Source: Chlamydiia bacterium (lineage in GTDB: Bacteria > Chlamydiota > Chlamydiia > Chlamydiales > Parachlamydiaceae). Taken from it: a DNA stretch of 18,374 nucleotides. The notes under the pieces were generated by a model. That model searched no databases, was not told the DNA's origin, and worked only from the letters and a program-made list of their open reading frames with translations. The position numbers and the translations under genes were made by a program. The DNA is taken from positions 1-18,374 of the forward strand of contig JBBSJT010000041.1 in the NCBI GenBank assembly GCA_038257035.1, written 5' to 3'. Positions 4,062 through 18,190 of this stretch are shown piece by piece. The first letter of the stretch is position 1. Each line of letters starts with the position of its first letter.

Positions 4062-4160
4062 TTTTTAACGCAAAGGCGCAAAGGCGCAAAGTTACAATAC
4101 CCTTTCAGAGTTCAAAGACTTATTTTTACTCTTTGCGCCTTTGCGTCTTTGCGTTAAAAA
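4062..4160. repeat. Palindromic REP/MITE-like element A: 30-bp arms of 3x CGCAAAG, 39-bp spacer
   Basis: Left arm 4062-4091 TTTTTAACGCAAAGGCGCAAAGGCGCAAAG. Right arm 4131-4160 is its reverse complement with 1 mismatch. Lies between convergent genes. Confidence 0.9.
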
Positions 4161-11044: not shown

Positions 11045-14000
11045 ATGTTTTAGATCGAAATTTAAACGTCCAAGATAGTTACTTATTAGAAGCCTCTGCG
11101 GGAACAGGAAAAACATTTTCTATTGAAAATATTGTGGTGAGGATGCTTATTGAGCATGAAACACCTCTTCTTTTAGACCAAATTCTTATTGTTACTTTTA
11201 CAAAAGCTGCAACTTCCGATCTAAAAAAACGAATTCGTCAAAACATAGAAAAAGTGTTGCAAATTTTTAAAAATCCAAAAAATTGCGCTCAAAATCCCGA
11301 TTACATCGAAGCGCACCTTGAAAAAGGGGAAACAGCAATTAAGACTGCTATTTCAAAATTAAAAACAGCTCTTTTTACTTTTGATGATGCTCAAATATTT
11401 ACAATCCACTCCTTTTGTTCAAAAATGCTTCATGACAATATCATTGAAGGGGGCATCTCTTTGGGAAGTAAAGAGACTAATAGTTCTTTAATGAATACAG
11501 AAGTAATCGATGTGATCCGCAATTTTTTTAGAACGGAGCTAACGGCAAAAAAATTTAGTCAATCTCAAATCAATATTGTTTTAAAAAAACATAAATCCAA
11601 TATCGAAAAAGTTGAAAAAGCGCTCCTTAAATGGATTCTTAAAGGTCTTGAAATTAAAAAAACTACAGATTTCTCTGATCTTTTTAAAAAATTTGTTCAC
11701 ATCATCGAAAATCTACCTTTTGAAAAAGAAAAAATCATTGCCGATTTTGAAAATCAGATTATTAATTACAAAAAATTAAAAAATCACGAAACAGGTCTAG
11801 AAAAAGTTACTGAGTTTGCCAATCTTTTTGAAAAGGATTCTTTTGTTGAAGATGATTTTGATCGTTTAATTCAAAATGATCTTTACCTTTTAGAAGCATT
11901 AGATCCAAAGCAGTTAAAAGTTAAGGTTAAACCACTGGAAAAACCGCTTTTTTATCCTGATCTAATTTCCCAATTAAAAGAAGAACTTTTGCCTCTCGTT
12001 GAAGAGGCTGGTAGCTATGAATGCATTTTTGCCCGAATGGCACATGATGCGGCCCATTTGCTTCAAAATTATTTAATTGAGGAAGAAAAATTTCGCTTCG
12101 ATGACCTTTTAAAGTATATGAAAGAAGCCTTAAAAAATCAGCAATTCCTTGATTCGGTCAGAAAAAGGTATAAAGCTGCTATTATTGATGAGTTTCAAGA
12201 CACAGATCAAATTCAATGGGAAATTTTTAATGGCCTCTTTACTGGCGTTTCACCTATCTATTTAGTGGGTGACCCGAAACAATCCATCTACTCCTTTAGA
12301 CAAGCAGACATTTACACCTACTTGCAAGCTGCAAATACAATTCAAGAAGATCATAAACTTTCTTTGGACACAAATTTCAGATCACAACCTTCTTTAACTT
12401 GCTGCTTAAATGCATTATTTGAAAAACTTTTAAGTCCTGAATTTATTGCGTTACCAAAACTTGAAATTGTTTTAGATTTCTTAAAAGTCAAATCTCCTTC
12501 TACAATTTCAGAATATTTATTTACAGATAACCTTGGAAGTGTTCACTTTTTTATAGCGGAAGCTCAAAATAAATTTGATTTAGATGAAATTGAAAAATAT
12601 TATTTTCCTTTTATTGCCGATCAAATACAAAGTCTTCAAGCTCAAGGTTTTAAACCATCACAAATGGCCATATTGGTCAAAGATCAATTTCAGGCAAATC
12701 GAATTCTTAATTATATGCAGGAAAAAGGCTTTTCATTAGAGCTTCAAAGACTTTCCAATATGTCAGAATCTGCTGTTTTGCCAAATTTGATTGATTTGCT
12801 TAACGCCATTTTGCAGCCTCGCGATGAAAGTTTCTTAAAAAAAGCTCTTGGCAGTCAGTTGATAGGGTTTACCGCCCAAGATATTTTATCCTTAAAAGAT
12901 CCATTATTTTTTGAAAACATCCTGGATAAGTTTCTTTATTTAAAGTCTTTGCTCTTTAATTTTGGCTTTTCAAGCTTTTTCCAAGCTTTTCTTAAAAGTT
13001 CTTTTTTAGCAAATTTAAACGTTGCAGAAGCGCTGATGCAAAAAGAAAATGGTGCTGATATTTACGATGATCTTTTGCAAATCAGTGAGCTTTTAAGTGA
13101 ACATCAAAGCCAGACAAAAGCTACTGTTGATGATTTATTATGTTTTTTAAAAGAATTTGATATTTTAAGCTTTGATTCTGACGATCGCATGAAAAAATTA
13201 AAAGATCCAACCCTAGAAGCTGTCAAAGTATTGACCATCCATTCAAGTAAAGGTCTTGAGTTTGACATCGTTTTTGCTTTAGGACTCATTAACCGTACAC
13301 CCCTTCCTGACACGCTGATCCCTGTTCAAATAGATTCTAAAAATATTTTAGAGCCTCTAACCAACAAATCTTCAAAAAAATATTTAGACCATTGTCAAGA
13401 ACTTGACGCTGAAAAATTGCGTCAATTGTATGTGGCGATGACCCGGGCAAAATACAGGCTTTATGTTCCTGCTGCTTTTTGTTTAAAAGGTAAAGAGATT
13501 GAAGCTCCAAGCGCCTCTTGCATGGAGCTATTTTTAGCAAAGATGAAACCGTTTCGAAATCATGATATAAGCCTCTATGAAAACATTCAAAACTTGAAGT
13601 CAGAAGACTTCATCTCTTTACTTGAAACTCTAAAAATTAATTTGAAATTTACTTATTCCAAATTAAATGAGATGAGCTTTTCATTTAAATCCCAAGAAAA
13701 ACAACATGCCAACCTAACTTGTCCAAAAGTTGTTCAGATTTTAGATGAATCGATCTTCATGACTTCATTTACAAAATCTTCTACAAAAAAATATACTCCT
13801 TTAAAACCTCTTGAAATGCCTCATGATTTTAACCTGGAAGAAAAAAACAAACACAAACTTCCAACAGGAAGAAAAACAGGCATCCTTTTTCATTCCATTT
13901 TAGAGTCATTTCCTTTTGACAAATTTACCGAAATCAACCAACCTGATGAACTCAACTCCTTTACACATCCCTTTCTTAACGGGACAAAATTTGAAAATTG

Positions 14001-14481: not shown

Positions 14482-14681
14482 TTTTTTTACCGCGAAGGAC
14501 GCGAAGAAGCGCAGCTTACGCTGCGGGAAGAGGCGCGAAGTAGCGCGCTAAAGCGCGAAAGGCAATTAGAGAAATGGTTTTAAAAATTTTTCCTTTTTTC
14601 TTATCCGCGCTTTAGCGCGCTTCTTCGCGTTTCTTCCCGCAGCGTAAGCTGCGCTTCTTCGCGATCTTCGCGGTAAAAAAA
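14482..14681. repeat. Palindromic REP/MITE-like element B: 76-bp arms with nested hairpins, 48-bp spacer
   Basis: Arms 14482-14557 and 14606-14681 are reverse complements with 5 mismatches. Repeated CGCGAAG units. Internal hairpins CGCAGC-TTAC-GCTGCG and CGCGC-TAAA-GCGCG. Confidence 0.92.
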
Positions 14682-14794: not shown

Positions 14795-16474
14795 ATGGTA
14801 GGATTCATGGGATTTCAATATAAAGACTTTATTCCCAAAAGCATTAGTTGCTTTAAAGAAGGTTATTCAAAAAAAATTCTCTTTCATGATCTTTTTGCAG
14901 GAATTAGTATCGGTGTCATTTCCCTTCCCCTTTGCTTGGCTTTTGCAATCGCATCAGGAGTAACACCTGATAAAGGGCTGTTTACGGCAATTGTTGCAGG
15001 CTTTTTAATTTCACTTCTTGGTGGAAGTCGCGTACAAATTGGTGGACCAACGAGTGCATTCGTTGTTGTCATATACGCAACTGTTGAAAAACATGGTTAT
15101 GTAGGGCTTGCACTAGCGACACTAATTGCTGCCGTGTTACTCATTATCATGGGATTGGCACGCTTTGGCATATTGTTAAAATTTATTCCATTTTCTGTAA
15201 CTACGGGATTTACAACGGGTATTGCTTTTCTATTGGTTTTTTCCCAAATTAAGGATTTTTTTGGTTTGCAAGCAGATATTGTTCCACCCACCTTCCTCGG
15301 TAAATGTGATCTATATTGCCATATCGTCCACACGTGGAACATATGGGCACTCTTTGTTGCCTTATCAACCTTAATCCTTATTTTTATTCTACGCCATTTT
15401 CTTCCAAAATGGCCGGGACCCGTTTTTGCCATCGTTTTAGCGACCCTTGCCACCCATTTTTTTAAATTACCGATTGATACTGTAGTTTCAAAATTTGGTG
15501 AAATATCCACAGGACTTCCCTACATATCTTTACCATTTTTTTCTTATGAACTTTTCAAAAATGTCTTTCCGGATGCCATCACAATTGCTTTACTTGGCGC
15601 TATAGAATCTCTTTTATCAGCCTCTGTTGCCGATGCACTCATCGGAACAAAACATAGATCCAACATGGAACTTGTTGCCCAAGGTTTTGCAAATATCGGC
15701 TCAGTTCTATTTGGTGGTATTCCGGCTACCGGTGCTATCTCTCGGACAGCTGCTAATATCAAATTTGGGGCAAAAACTCCTGTTGCAGGCATGATTCATT
15801 CTTTAACAGTTTTACTTCTTATACTTTTTTGCTCAGAAGTTGCAGGAAAAATTCCTCTTGCTGCCCTTGCAGGTGTTTTAATCTTTATTGCATGGAATAT
15901 GAGTGAACTTCATCATTTTGTAGAAATTATAAGAGGAAATAGAACGGATGCAGTTATTCTTTTAACCACATTTTTTTTAACTGTTTTCATCAATCTTTCA
16001 ACAGCTGTACAAGTCGGTATCATCTTGGCGGCAATGGACTTTATTAGGAAGATGACAAATGAAACATCTGTAAAGATTTATAAAGAATTAATTTACGAAA
16101 ATGAACATGAATCTACACAAAATGATTCAACACCTTACGATCTACCTGAAGATGTTGTTGTTTTTGAGATTTCAGGTCCATTTTTCTATAGCGTGGCCGA
16201 TCTTTTAGATGAAGCACTTCAACAACTTGACCAAAACCCACGAGTTTTTATCCTGCGCCTTAATAAAACCTCTTTAATTGATTCCACAGGCCTTCGTGCC
16301 ATCAAAAAATTTGCCCTAAAATGCAAATCTAAAGGCATTCAGTTTCTGATTTCCGATCTTAGTGAAAAATATAGCAAACTCTTCAAAAAAATCAACATCG
16401 AAGAACTTATCGGTCCTAACCGCCTATTTAAAGACTTCAACTCCGCCCTCGCCCACGCCAAAACAACAACTTAA
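14795..16474 (+). CDS. SulP/SLC26 family anion transporter (YchM/DauA-like) with STAS domain
   Basis: DLFAGI...LPLCLAFAIASGV, GGSRVQIGGPT, IESLLSA, ELVAQG, PATGAISRT; STAS domain GPFFY...IDSTG. The start may be 14807. Confidence 0.93.
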   Translation: MVGFMGFQYKDFIPKSISCFKEGYSKKILFHDLFAGISIGVISLPLCLAFAIASGVTPDKGLFTAIVAGFLISLLGGSRVQIGGPTSAFVVVIYATVEKHGYVGLALATLIAAVLLIIMGLARFGILLKFIPFSVTTGFTTGIAFLLVFSQIKDFFGLQADIVPPTFLGKCDLYCHIVHTWNIWALFVALSTLILIFILRHFLPKWPGPVFAIVLATLATHFFKLPIDTVVSKFGEISTGLPYISLPFFSYELFKNVFPDAITIALLGAIESLLSASVADALIGTKHRSNMELVAQGFANIGSVLFGGIPATGAISRTAANIKFGAKTPVAGMIHSLTVLLLILFCSEVAGKIPLAALAGVLIFIAWNMSELHHFVEIIRGNRTDAVILLTTFFLTVFINLSTAVQVGIILAAMDFIRKMTNETSVKIYKELIYENEHESTQNDSTPYDLPEDVVVFEISGPFFYSVADLLDEALQQLDQNPRVFILRLNKTSLIDSTGLRAIKKFALKCKSKGIQFLISDLSEKYSKLFKKINIEELIGPNRLFKDFNSALAHAKTTT

Positions 16475-16503
16475 AAGCAATCTGGCACTTAAGAGATATA
16501 CAT

Positions 16504-16691
16504 TTGCTAATTTGGAGTGCTGTGCCCTGGCACAGCTTTGTTGCTCAAATCGACCTGGCGATTTGTAAGCCCGATTTATCGGGGCTTTAAGACTTCCTTC
16601 AAAAAATACAAATCGACTTTGTCGATTTAGCAGCCTGCCAGGTCAGGCTGAAAACAAAGCTGTGCCAGGGCACAGCACTCCAAACTAGCAA
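16504..16691. repeat. Palindromic REPIN-like element C: 39-bp arms enclosing four further hairpins
   Basis: Arms 16504-16542 and 16653-16691 (1 mismatch), each containing the hairpin GCTGTGC-CCTG-GCACAGC or its reverse complement. Inner hairpins at 16546-16565, 16567-16587, 16610-16628 and 16631-16650. Lies between convergent genes. Confidence 0.92.
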
Positions 16692-16694
16692 TTT

Positions 16695-18077
16695 TTATTT
16701 CGTTGAGGAAAAAAAATCGCTACTTTGTATTTTATTTTCAAGCTTTTGATAGGCAATTACTTCACCGACAACATAACCAAAGAGAGATAAAAGAATACTT
16801 GCCAACTCTTTTGGAAATGCAATTGGATAAATGCGAAAAAGTATAAATCCAATAACTCCAAAGATCATTGCAAGGCAAGCAGAAATAAAGTTTCCTCTTT
16901 TTTTGAATAAAGCGATGAATATAGGTATGAAAAGACAACTGACTGAAAGCTCATAACTTTGCATCAATATGTCTAAAATATTATCAAGAAAGAAGGCAAA
17001 AATGATGGCTGCAATCGAAATTGTGCAAGTGATTCCTCTCACAAGTTTCATGCTACTGCATTTGAACCCTGACATGTTAAAATCACTCGATATATTAGAG
17101 CTGATTGCATTGATGAGTGCTGTAGCTGTTGAAATAATTGCAGCCAAAACCGCGCACCCAACCATTGCTGATATAATAGGGTTTGTGGTTTGAATGATCG
17201 CACTCATTAGTACGCTTCCACCATCCGGTACTTTTAATTGCATCGTTTGGGCTAGAATACCAAAAAATAAAGGAACAATGGAAATGATGATTGTACAAAA
17301 TCCTGCCGCCATTGTCGCTTGAGATACAATTTTTGGAGAAGCTCCAGCAAAGCAACGTTGACCAATGCTTTGCTCAATTAACATAAAAAGAAGCGGCATA
17401 AGCAACCAACGGTTAAGTTTTGAAGAAACTAATCCCAAATTTTCTACATTAGGCATTGGGATTTCAGAAACCATAGGCTCATAAAAAATCACATATCCAA
17501 AACAAAGTAGAAACACTCCCATAAAAAAAAGTGCTTGAACAAGATCTGTAGAAATGACAGCTTTTAAGCCCCCTTGCACTGTATAAATTATTACAATTGC
17601 CCAAAACAGTACAAAGAGGGGTGTGTTTTCAAGTCCAAGGCTTACAAGAAATTTACTTGAACCTATTATTTGTCCTACAAGGATCATAAAAAGAGAACAA
17701 ATTGAAAGAAGAGATGCTGCTTTTTTAAGCATTGATGATTTGTAAGCCACTTCACAAATTTCAGCAACCGTTGAAACCGGAAAATCGGCCAATCGTTTTC
17801 CGATGCCGGCACCTAACACAATCAGGCCAAGTGCCCCTCCAAGCGGGTAAAGAAATATCGACCAACCGTAAAGGTAGGCCTCTTCAGCAGACCCAAGCAC
17901 CATACCGCCTCCAATCACAACTCCGATAAAGGTCATCATGAGCGGGAAAAATTGAACATTTTTCCCAGCAAGGAAATAGTCTTTTTGATCAGCAATTCCT
18001 TTAGAGGAATAGCGACCCACTACGAAATAGATCAATTGCAGCACAAACAGCATGCAAATAAAAATTTTAAAATCCAT
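16695..18077 (-). CDS. Sodium:solute symporter family protein (PutP/PanF-like, substrate unknown)
   Basis: DYFLAGK, YTVQGGLKAVISTDLVQ, QRCFA and LAAIISTA motifs; many TMs. Start reassigned to ATG 18077 after GGAGA. Confidence 0.92.
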   Translation of the reverse strand: MDFKIFICMLFVLQLIYFVVGRYSSKGIADQKDYFLAGKNVQFFPLMMTFIGVVIGGGMVLGSAEEAYLYGWSIFLYPLGGALGLIVLGAGIGKRLADFPVSTVAEICEVAYKSSMLKKAASLLSICSLFMILVGQIIGSSKFLVSLGLENTPLFVLFWAIVIIYTVQGGLKAVISTDLVQALFFMGVFLLCFGYVIFYEPMVSEIPMPNVENLGLVSSKLNRWLLMPLLFMLIEQSIGQRCFAGASPKIVSQATMAAGFCTIIISIVPLFFGILAQTMQLKVPDGGSVLMSAIIQTTNPIISAMVGCAVLAAIISTATALINAISSNISSDFNMSGFKCSSMKLVRGITCTISIAAIIFAFFLDNILDILMQSYELSVSCLFIPIFIALFKKRGNFISACLAMIFGVIGFILFRIYPIAFPKELASILLSLFGYVVGEVIAYQKLENKIQSSDFFSSTK

Positions 18078-18113
18078 GATAAATTCTCCAAAAAAAAATA
18101 ATAGTACGCGTTT

Positions 18114-18190
18114 AAGCCCATGCCGATTCAATAAAAATCGTTCCGACTTGGAGGCTTGTAATTAGTTGCAATCTACGATTGAACTAACAA
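18114..18190 (-). promoter_or_regulatory. Candidate structured 5' leader of the symporter gene
   Basis: Two adjacent stem-loops: UUAGUU-CAAUC-GUA-GAUUG-C-AACUAA, and AAGCC...GGCUU enclosing mutually exclusive inner hairpins. No known riboswitch consensus recognised. Confidence 0.35.

Follow-up and report, generated by a model that had tools for sequence, protein, structure and literature searches.

Element C, a palindromic repeat between convergent chlamydial genes, belongs to a Chlamydiota family probably of the REP/BIME/REPIN-RAYT kind

The window analysed here is an 18,374-nt stretch of contig C41 (JBBSJT010000041.1) from the genome of a Chlamydiia bacterium (GCA_038257035.1, designated G000; 2.37 Mb in 210 contigs, 36% G+C), whose proteins have their nearest named homologues in Parachlamydiaceae and in Chlamydiota metagenome-assembled genomes. 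Toward its right end, between the stop codons of two convergent genes, lies a palindrome of ~190 nt, termed element C (16503..16691). The gene on the left encodes a SulP/STAS sulfate permease (14795..16474, plus strand) and stops 37 nt from the TTTGGAGTGC box (start 16511) and ~28 nt from the element's start at 16503; the gene on the right encodes a sodium:solute symporter (16695..18131, minus strand) and stops 11 nt from the right-hand box (end 16684) and ~3 nt from the element's end at 16691. Element C is a palindromic dimer of two inverted half-elements of a dispersed repeat. The corresponding family is found across Chlamydiota and is best regarded as new within a kind that is already known, namely that of repetitive extragenic palindromes (REPs), bacterial interspersed mosaic elements (BIMEs) and REP doublets forming hairpins (REPINs) with their REP-associated tyrosine transposases (RAYTs). 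We regard it as quite probable that element C is a non-autonomous repeat of this type, most likely processed as folded single-stranded DNA (ssDNA) by a RAYT encoded on contig C68.

The outer arms of element C (16504-16542 and 16653-16691) comprise 39 nt and are 97% complementary. Read from the left, a conserved 5′ box, TTGGAGTGC (16512..16520, plus strand), ends in a GC that forms the foot of hairpin H5 (GCTGTGCC-CT-GGCACAGC; 16519..16536, plus strand), the REP hairpin proper; by analogy, this box would have a role equivalent to that of GTAG in classical REPs. H5 is followed by the linker TTTGTTGCT (16537..16545, plus strand; family consensus GCTTTGT..., with CTTT nearly invariant 3′ of H5) and by a second hairpin with an AAATC-type stem, referred to as type H3 (CAAATCG-ACCTGG-CGATTTG; 16546..16565, plus strand). 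Two inner hairpins, both variable modules, follow on the same strand: H1 (AAGCCCGA-TTTA-TCGGGGCTT; 16567..16587), whose GCCCG stem is common to H4, and H2 (AAATCGAC-TTT-GTCGATTT; 16610..16628), whose AAATCG stem is common to H3. The right half lies on the minus strand, with a second hairpin of type H4 (CAGCCTG-ACCTGG-CAGGCTG; 16631..16650), its own H5 (16659..16676), and the box plus terminus (16675..16691; GCACTCCAAACTAGCAA on the plus strand). At 16692-16730 of the window, as in the flanks of other copies, a loosely conserved outer module is found (AACGAAAT(A/G)TAAAA), sometimes after ACGTTATTTTCC. As many copies carry this module (AACGAAAT) beyond their termini, the outer edge given here for the element is provisional.

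A previous sequence-only reading of the window had singled out the two second hairpins, describing them as CAAATC-GACCTGGC-GATTTG (16546-16565) and, for the reverse complement of 16631-16650, CAGCCT-GACCTGGC-AGGCTG, with four of six stem positions changed and pairing preserved. Sequences and stem difference alike are as it described; in addition, a seventh G-C pair closes each stem, resulting in a 7-bp stem and a 6-nt loop (ACCTGG; CCAGGT in the mirror copy). Its observations that CCTGGC recurs at the tip of the arm hairpin (16519-16536) and that two inner hairpins lie at 16567-16587 and 16610-16628 likewise hold. Folded in silico as ssDNA, a 196-nt stretch containing element C reached -72.1 kcal/mol on one strand (z = -15.9) and -71.7 kcal/mol on the other (z = -14.5); none of 200 shuffled sequences was as stable. 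Within the folded element, H4 was predicted to form as a local hairpin with a probability of 0.98 on the plus strand and 0.96 on the minus strand, and in the minimum-energy fold the 5′ arm of H3 was predicted to pair with the 3′ arm of H2.

Searching the host genome with a 206-nt element query returned 65 matches, and a separate BLAST search gave 72 pieces that merged into 41 places; given the fragmented assembly, all copy counts for this family are lower bounds. Half-elements have a common order, consisting of a terminus (beginning with TTTGCTAATT or GTAAAAGTAAAATT), the box TTGGAGTGC, H5, the linker GCTTTGT and a second hairpin, the stem of which is of either the H3 type (CAAATCG...CGATTTG) or the H4 type (CAGCCYG...CRGGCTG). 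Two such half-elements in inverted orientation make up a dimer, and in element C a left half with H3 is paired with a right half with H4. As an anchor set we took all exact genomic occurrences of TGGAGTGC, 98 in total including 2 at contig edges, with no hairpin criterion applied. About 72 of these 98 anchors are family members, and 58 half-elements were aligned after five minimal single-hairpin members, two C63 forms, five repeat-interrupted, two contig-edge and two doubtful copies, as well as ~24 unrelated chance matches, had been dropped. Minimal members consist of box, H5 and inverted box in one long hairpin (C3:18096, C12:29590 and C22:5611), and in the form at C63:12636 the box is accompanied by a short stem with H3 at its tip. 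The box is invariant in the 58 aligned half-elements, which were themselves picked by the anchor.

Base-pairing is kept throughout this alignment. Over both helices, 90.5% of 980 cells were paired, as compared to 77.0% upon shuffling, and 150 cells were changed on both sides against 58.2 in the shuffled sets (neither value was reached in any of 500 shuffles); sliding the partner by 1-3 columns lowered pairing to 25-50%. Changes on both sides occurred at 9 of the 17 pairs. Helix 1, i.e. H5, contributed four of its eight pairs, with 94.8% of cells paired, and helix 2, i.e. the second hairpin, five of nine, with 86.7% of cells paired. The shuffle control leaves kinship among copies in, meaning that these figures show pairing to be kept family-wide and do not count independent events. 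With respect to the stems of the second hairpins, the family alters the meaning of the difference seen in element C. The sequence-only reading had taken it for a compensatory change within this element, yet the stems fall into two recurring types, AAATC in 24 and GCCY in 32 of the 58 half-elements (CAGCCC 15, CAGCCT 11, AAGCCC 4, TAGCCC 2), so that the apparent compensation is a difference between two modules. One pair of H4 alternates between C:G and T:A.

The 8-nt core GACCTGGC, previously considered invariant, is so within a subfamily. Across the family, it forms the tip of 24 of the 58 second hairpins, the others carrying GACTCTGGC (12), GACTTGTC (5), GGCTCCGGC (5), GACTCGTC (3) or further variants (9). 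The tip class of H5 is that of the second hairpin in the same half in 46 of 58 cases (21 CCTGN, 17 CTCYG and 8 CTYGT); the exceptions are one half that clearly crosses classes and 11 degenerate ones. The type of terminus tracks the tip class, too.

The sequence-only reading had suggested looking for a linked HUH nuclease, and one was found in the form of a RAYT gene located between inverted half-elements. The genome has nine matches to Pfam Y1_Tnp. The 176-aa open reading frame (ORF) at C68:12093-12620 (minus strand) scored 85.8 bits on NCBIfam NF047646 (REP_Tyr_transpos, REP-associated tyrosine transposase; cutoff 80) and failed the NCBIfam IS200 model (19.4 bits; cutoff 55). It is single-copy and the sole gene in the genome to pass NF047646. 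The only relative of its product in the Protein Data Bank is Escherichia coli TnpAREP (4er8; E = 0.018). In the alignment with 4er8_A, HYH is placed on HMH and YVMQNPVKH on YIYINPVKH, and judged by this alignment the C68 protein has an HUH motif and a putative catalytic tyrosine. Its gene is flanked on the left by a box, H5 and H4 (C68:11985-12048) and on the right, in inverted orientation, by H4′ and H5′ (12792-12830), the latter flank being truncated by an inserted repeat and a decayed inverted unit lying in between. Homologues with 53-54% identity included proteins from Acidobacteriota.

Other Y1-type genes of this genome have repeats of their own. A 148-aa IS200-like ORF at C48:13969-14277 (L036:1396-1842, minus strand) has HIQ at the HUH position and no recognisable tyrosine motif. 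A half-element of the CTCTG subfamily lies ~100 nt upstream of it, with no match downstream, and this ORF may be the decayed partner of that subfamily. Five more Y1/HUH genes or remnants were located at C29:9113-9457, C119:363-704 (with an in-frame TGA), C105:2280-2621, C7:10608-10945 and C25:9991-10328 (the last two being broken). Those on C29, C119, C105 and C7 each have GC-rich hairpin repeats to either side that are different and particular to them, with GTAG adjoining the hairpin in the flanks of the C29 and C119 genes; the one on C25 has a hairpin downstream only, and its outer flanks match each other in inverted orientation. Several distinct REP-RAYT-like systems thus seem to coexist in this genome.

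Beyond the host genome, the 206-nt element as such gave strong BLAST matches nowhere, with short weak matches in 5 of 40 relatives (designated G001 and onward). RAYT orthologues with 48-52% identity were found in G012, G033, G019, G006, G015 and G021, alongside a partial match in G031 (57% identity), a broken copy in G007 and a 28% identical protein in G029. At all six orthologue loci inspected (G012, G033, G019, G006, G015 and G031), the RAYT gene is flanked by the box and a hairpin whose stem differs from that of H5: GCGCCGGC-TCC-GCCGGCGC in G012, GCGAAAG-TCCT-CTTTCGC in G019, GCGAAGGC-CCT-GCCTTCGC in G015, GCGGTGAC-TC-GTCACCGC in G031 and GCTGGGAC-NN-GTCCTAGC in G033, with G006 showing a variant box, TTGGAATGC. 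In an alignment of H5 from 17 hand-picked representatives (1-4 per genome, 12 genomes), chosen by box and GCTTT and not by pairing, 94.1% of cells were paired and 30 changed on both sides as compared to 7.9 upon shuffling, neither value being attained in 500 shuffles. Of 41 related genomes, 8 had 20-238 matches each to the pattern TTGGAGTGC-N10-20-GCTTT, the reversed-pattern control giving 0-1 matches. Summed over both strands, there were 238 matches in G019, 124 in G021, 114 in G033, 95 in G015, 44 in G000, 43 in G010, 37 in G012, 20 in G031 and 19 in G009, and at most 10 in each of the other 32 genomes. A RAYT orthologue is present in 7 of the 8 genomes with at least 20 matches; as these genomes are related, the association does not amount to a formal test.

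The two-hairpin half with matched tips recurs in these relatives. By eye, such halves with tips other than those of the host were recognised in G001, G004, G005, G031, G033 and G037 (the last with GGCTTGAC on both hairpins of a half); one half in G002, in which H5 is decayed, was left out of this tally. In G033, three of the four dimers inspected have differing left and right second stems and the same GAC-NN-GTC tip. The sequence-only reading had proposed that structure plus loop sequence is under selection or repaired by template switching, and what stands of this is that stem pairing and tip sequence are kept over many copies and genomes. It had also named observations that would speak against it: inner hairpins and the GACCTGGC core are each absent from many copies, which goes partly in that direction, while covariation is present.

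In the same-genus genomes G001 and G002, the SulP-symporter junction is not conserved, the symporter alone being matched (69% identity, G001), so that neither offers an empty site for comparison. Two metagenome contigs encode a 91% identical SulP protein and the same convergent symporter. The junction in both holds the box and an H5 of another subfamily (GCGGTAAC-TCT-GTTACCGC), then the first bases of H3, followed by a ~90-nt deletion and a right arm that, though decayed, remains alignable. This altered copy at the orthologous junction implies that an element already occupied the site in the common ancestor and underwent remodelling later, and the 97% complementarity of the arms of element C points to recent homogenisation or replacement. 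Remodelling at the orthologous site shows turnover, mechanism aside, and is the nearest thing to evidence for activity.

Within the host genome, 24 dimers of 140-210 nt could be compared. Their second hairpins are combined as H3/H4 in 18, as H4/H4 in 5 and as H3/H3 in 1. Inner hairpins, with H1 beside H3 and H2 beside H4, occur in only ~9 of the 24, the other dimers having a different centre, and H1-like hairpins substitute for the outer terminus in some copies. Five dimers (C1:4243-4383, C29:6113-6259, C30:697-843, C115:295-439 and C131:5118-5256) have unique, perfect AT-rich palindromic centres that are mutually unrelated; all five still combine one H3 with one H4. When whole dimers were folded as ssDNA, the mean predicted probability of a local second hairpin, a thermodynamic prediction, was 0.55 over the 36 strands of the 18 dimers whose second hairpins differ; over the 12 strands of the 6 dimers with like hairpins, in which the two copies pair with each other, it was 0.00.

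A further repeat was observed at the tips of H5. In 8 of 8 occurrences and in both orientations, a repeat with the terminal sequence CCTTACAGTCGGACACATCTTTTTCTT begins directly after the 8-nt H5 tip (C1:60317, C30:20942, C54:15459, C65:135 and 13656, C68:12836, C81:231 and C84:9535). Each occurrence in G000 lies ~135 nt from a contig end, its interior being unassembled. A miniature element of ~310 bp with CCTTACAGTCGGACACATCTTTTTCTT-type inverted ends sits inside a GGAGTGC-box hairpin in G040 (L087 1500-1808), and the repeat is present in G007 as well (L086 ~1521-1548). The CCTTACAGTCGGACACATCTTTTTCTT element looks like one that targets REP hairpin tips; the single IS110-family gene of the host genome (C109) showed no link to it.

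What could maintain such a family? The basic unit would be the box TTGGAGTGC with H5 and GCTTTGT, followed, here and in several relatives, by a second hairpin with the same 8-nt tip. Most likely, the single C68 RAYT, an HUH/Y1 enzyme, recognises the element as folded ssDNA, cuts it and rejoins it, and it is as ssDNA that the fold of element C most likely matters. The stems would then need pairing only and could drift or be swapped, and box and hairpin tips, being read by sequence, would stay constant within a subfamily and change jointly. The AAATCG and GCCYG stems of H3 and H4 are alternative modules and would, by analogy, correspond to the two REP types, y and z, in E. coli BIMEs, which are inverted and differ where complementarity is kept (PMC3333891, in the part of that paper used here). 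Since the differing second hairpins of a dimer cannot pair mutually, each is predicted to stay extruded locally when the element folds back. From the combinations among dimers, the G033 dimers and the folding of whole dimers, we infer that differing second stems are kept so that tips stay displayed. By analogy with characterised enzymes, the C68 RAYT would bind and cut the hairpins with the tips as contacts, and the stem difference would be selected. In the published sections drawn on here, RAYTs are described to recognise REPs as folded ssDNA, strand-specifically, via a 5′ motif and loop or bulge bases, and in one RAYT group some loop positions tolerate no change (PMC8266576).

Several observations weigh against RAYT processing as just outlined. 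Only one RAYT of this clade faces three tip subfamilies, and the tips in its C68 flanks are GGCCTGGC and GACATGGC, so that either one enzyme serves all subfamilies or partner enzymes have been lost. G010 has 43 pattern matches and no RAYT orthologue at E <= 1e-10; conversely, G006 (with its box variant), G007 (broken gene) and G029 (28% identity) carry the gene and have at most 8 matches. The second hairpins are alike in 6 of the 24 host dimers and in the single G005 dimer inspected, and several dimers with differing hairpins have a local-hairpin probability near 0 owing to alternative pairings. At the foot of H5, the box TTGGAGTGC stands in place of the GTAG tag of classical REPs; in the part of PMC3733652 considered, GTAG is likewise not universal for RAYT-linked repeats, as exemplified by TIRtrons. 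Neither a target-site duplication nor a sharp boundary was found in 55 aligned flanks. Mobility of the element is putative, and public contigs, which came from three low-share sequencing runs, none of them listed as RNA, as short unitigs out of many family copies, never bridge element C. Finally, tip agreement and paired stems could partly stem from a few master copies rather than from ongoing selection.

This last point can be extended to an explanation of its own, in which the H3/H4 difference and the shared tips are functionless, having arisen from few founder copies that were shuffled by recombination among family members. The three subfamilies, with terminus type and tip travelling together, the mosaic look, with modules H1 to H4 recurring at different positions, and a shuffle control that keeps relatedness in would all fit such a history. 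It sits poorly with the matched tips of different sequence in at least six other genomes from several families, with the three of four G033 dimers that combine differing second hairpins with a shared tip, and with the five dimers that have unique perfect palindromic centres and matching outer arms, yet still differ in their second hairpins. We consider it doubtful. Somewhat less doubtful, if still improbable as the main reason for conservation, is host use of the element as a two-way terminator or protector of mRNA 3′ ends by means of the inward H5 and a T-rich GCTTTGTT tail, which would be compatible with a RAYT origin. Terminator-like patterns are found at H5 plus TTTGTTGCT (plus strand, just past the SulP stop) and at H5 plus TTTGTTTTCA (minus strand, just past the symporter stop), with five such sites as compared to 0.6 expected, and the roles hypothesised for REPs, as far as the consulted part of PMC3733652 goes, include transcription termination and mRNA stabilisation. 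Gene context fits as well: among 24 exact-terminus dimers, none lies in an ORF of at least 100 aa and none between divergent genes, 10 lie in convergent and 11 in tandem gaps and 3 at contig ends, a count that rests on a crude ORF caller and has the C22 locus entered twice. By count, 15% of intergenic gaps are convergent, and by length 21%, giving P(>=10/21) = 3.5e-4 and 5.6e-3, respectively; P(0/21 divergent) is 0.02 by count and 0.003 by length. However, the runs of T in the tails are brief and broken up, intrinsic termination makes no use of a conserved 5′ box, of shared 8-nt tips or of second hairpins, and the association with RAYT genes across genomes would be left unexplained. Judging from this arrangement of sequences, it is plausible that the host uses the element at the 3′ ends of transcripts as well, alongside its link to the RAYT.

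Two further explanations fare worse. The element could be a miniature derivative of IS200/IS605 insertion sequences (IS) with a multicopy TnpA, or a miniature inverted-repeat transposable element with terminal inverted repeats (TIRs) mobilised by a DDE transposase, rather than a RAYT partner. Its long terminal inverted repeats, its size of 140-210 nt, the nine Y1_Tnp matches and the half-element ~100 nt upstream of the IS200-like C48 ORF are in its favour. On the other hand, the only gene bracketed on both sides passes the RAYT model, fails the IS200 model and is single-copy, the C48 protein lacks a clear HUH (HIQ) and the tyrosine motif, and the remaining Y1 genes have hairpin families of their own; moreover, the 55 aligned flanks showed no target-site duplication and no full-length IS with these ends was seen. 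Such a derivation is highly unlikely. Still more improbable is a discrete structured RNA of ~190 nt, be it a small RNA or a cis-regulator, with ACCTGG and CCAGGT engaged in a kissing interaction, as the sequence-only reading had envisaged. The loops are indeed complementary on one strand and the fold is far better than that of shuffled sequences, but complementarity of the H3 and H4 loops follows automatically from their mirror orientation. An Rfam scan of the whole window yielded no match at the gathering score, the near-palindrome occurs in either orientation at ~41 places and without exception at gene ends, the sequence separating the hairpins varies from copy to copy, and the sole promoter-like matches in a scan fall outside the element, on the minus strand. 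Neither the kissing loop nor the RNA finds support here.

The window contains two palindromic families besides that of element C (~41 places in the genome). Element A (4062-4160), a palindromic repeat with GCAAAGGCGCAAAG arms of 97% complementarity, has counterparts at ~46 places. Element B (14482-14681), a palindrome with 76-nt arms composed of CGCGAAG-like units, one of them GTAG-tagged, recurs at ~157 places; in the orthologous RecB-SulP gap of a metagenome contig (L095 ~2190-2440), a palindrome has the same TTTTTTTACC...GGTAAAAAAA ends with CAGTGAG-like units inside. Neither A nor B had a BLAST match within 1.5 kb of any Y1 gene in the genome.

If element C and its relatives are what we propose, a known framework accounts for the conspicuous intergenic palindromes of environmental chlamydiae, and the signature of TTGGAGTGC, hairpin and GCTTT would help to annotate genomes, to explain assembly breaks and to compare how REP-RAYT pairs have co-evolved outside Proteobacteria. 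The matched tips, together with second stems that usually differ, provide a testable hypothesis on the bases read by such enzymes. More speculatively, the GGAGTGC-box repeats of Chlamydiota might constitute a two-hairpin REP, in which the RAYT reads the same 8-nt tip twice per half, non-complementary second hairpins yield a multi-arm junction that displays the tips in place of a long duplex, and tip switches (CCTGG, CTCTG, CTTGT, GGCTTGAC) define populations that co-evolve with, or outlive, their enzymes. We offer this tentatively and think it would rather fail than hold; if true, recognition would be more elaborate in architecture than in the described REP systems with which we compared it.

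Among the papers listed by a literature search for REPs, REPINs and RAYTs in chlamydiae, none described such repeats there, the one relevant paper on REPINs being Di Nocera et al. 2013; supplementary tables might nonetheless list chlamydial genomes, and the part of PMC3733652 at hand reports GTAG repeats in the Planctomycetes-Verrucomicrobia-Chlamydiae superphylum with no mention of a GGAGTGC-type box. Contrary to the suggestion of an undescribed system in the sequence-only reading, the features found match the known REP/BIME/REPIN-RAYT kind. Several of those that characterise a REPtron are seen: a many-copy extragenic palindrome, paired changes, inverted pairing of units, a flanked single-copy RAYT gene and, by alignment, HUH plus tyrosine. 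The comparisons that follow draw on portions of the papers cited. As with REP/BIME and TnpAREP of E. coli (Ton-Hoang et al. 2012, PMC3333891; Corneloup et al. 2021, PMC8266576; 4er8), short extragenic palindromes occur in high copy number with a motif 5′ of the hairpin foot. As in the E. coli REPtron, units mostly come as inverted pairs of different types joined by a variable linker, and the repeats lie on both sides of a single-copy HUH/Y1 gene, a RAYT gene between inverted repeats being the published REPtron layout (PMC3333891). Recognition of folded ssDNA through loop bases, published for E. coli-type systems, would apply here by inference. Unlike in E. coli, TTGGAGTGC takes the place of GTAG as the tag, a half comprises two hairpins that share one tip, dimers reach a greater length (140-210 nt), the C68 protein is distant from 4er8 (E = 0.018) and the host belongs to Chlamydiota.

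Similar relations exist to other systems. With the REPINs of Pseudomonas fluorescens (Bertels and Rainey 2011, PMC3116915), the family has in common that inverted REPs form one long hairpin, are non-autonomous, are associated with a single-copy RAYT and are mostly lineage-specific; it differs from them in being mosaic, with extra inner hairpins, variable centres and three tip subfamilies for the one RAYT found. TIRtrons and their TIRYT proteins (Di Nocera et al. 2013, PMC3733652) resemble it in that RAYT-like genes lie between long inverted repeats and the dimeric families are moderately abundant, and one sharply defined TIRYT protein group in that study is from Acidobacteria; the motif of many TIRs given in the same portion of the paper, GGGGWSAS, was not seen in the termini here. 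The ends of IS200/IS605 elements are likewise subterminal hairpins read on ssDNA by a Y1 HUH enzyme and also differ between the two ends. In contrast to IS200/IS605, the flanked enzyme here fails the IS200 model and is single-copy, and the element is near-palindromic and usable on either strand. Set beside the REP descriptions compared, the chlamydial family has one feature that goes beyond them, its two-hairpin, matched-tip design.

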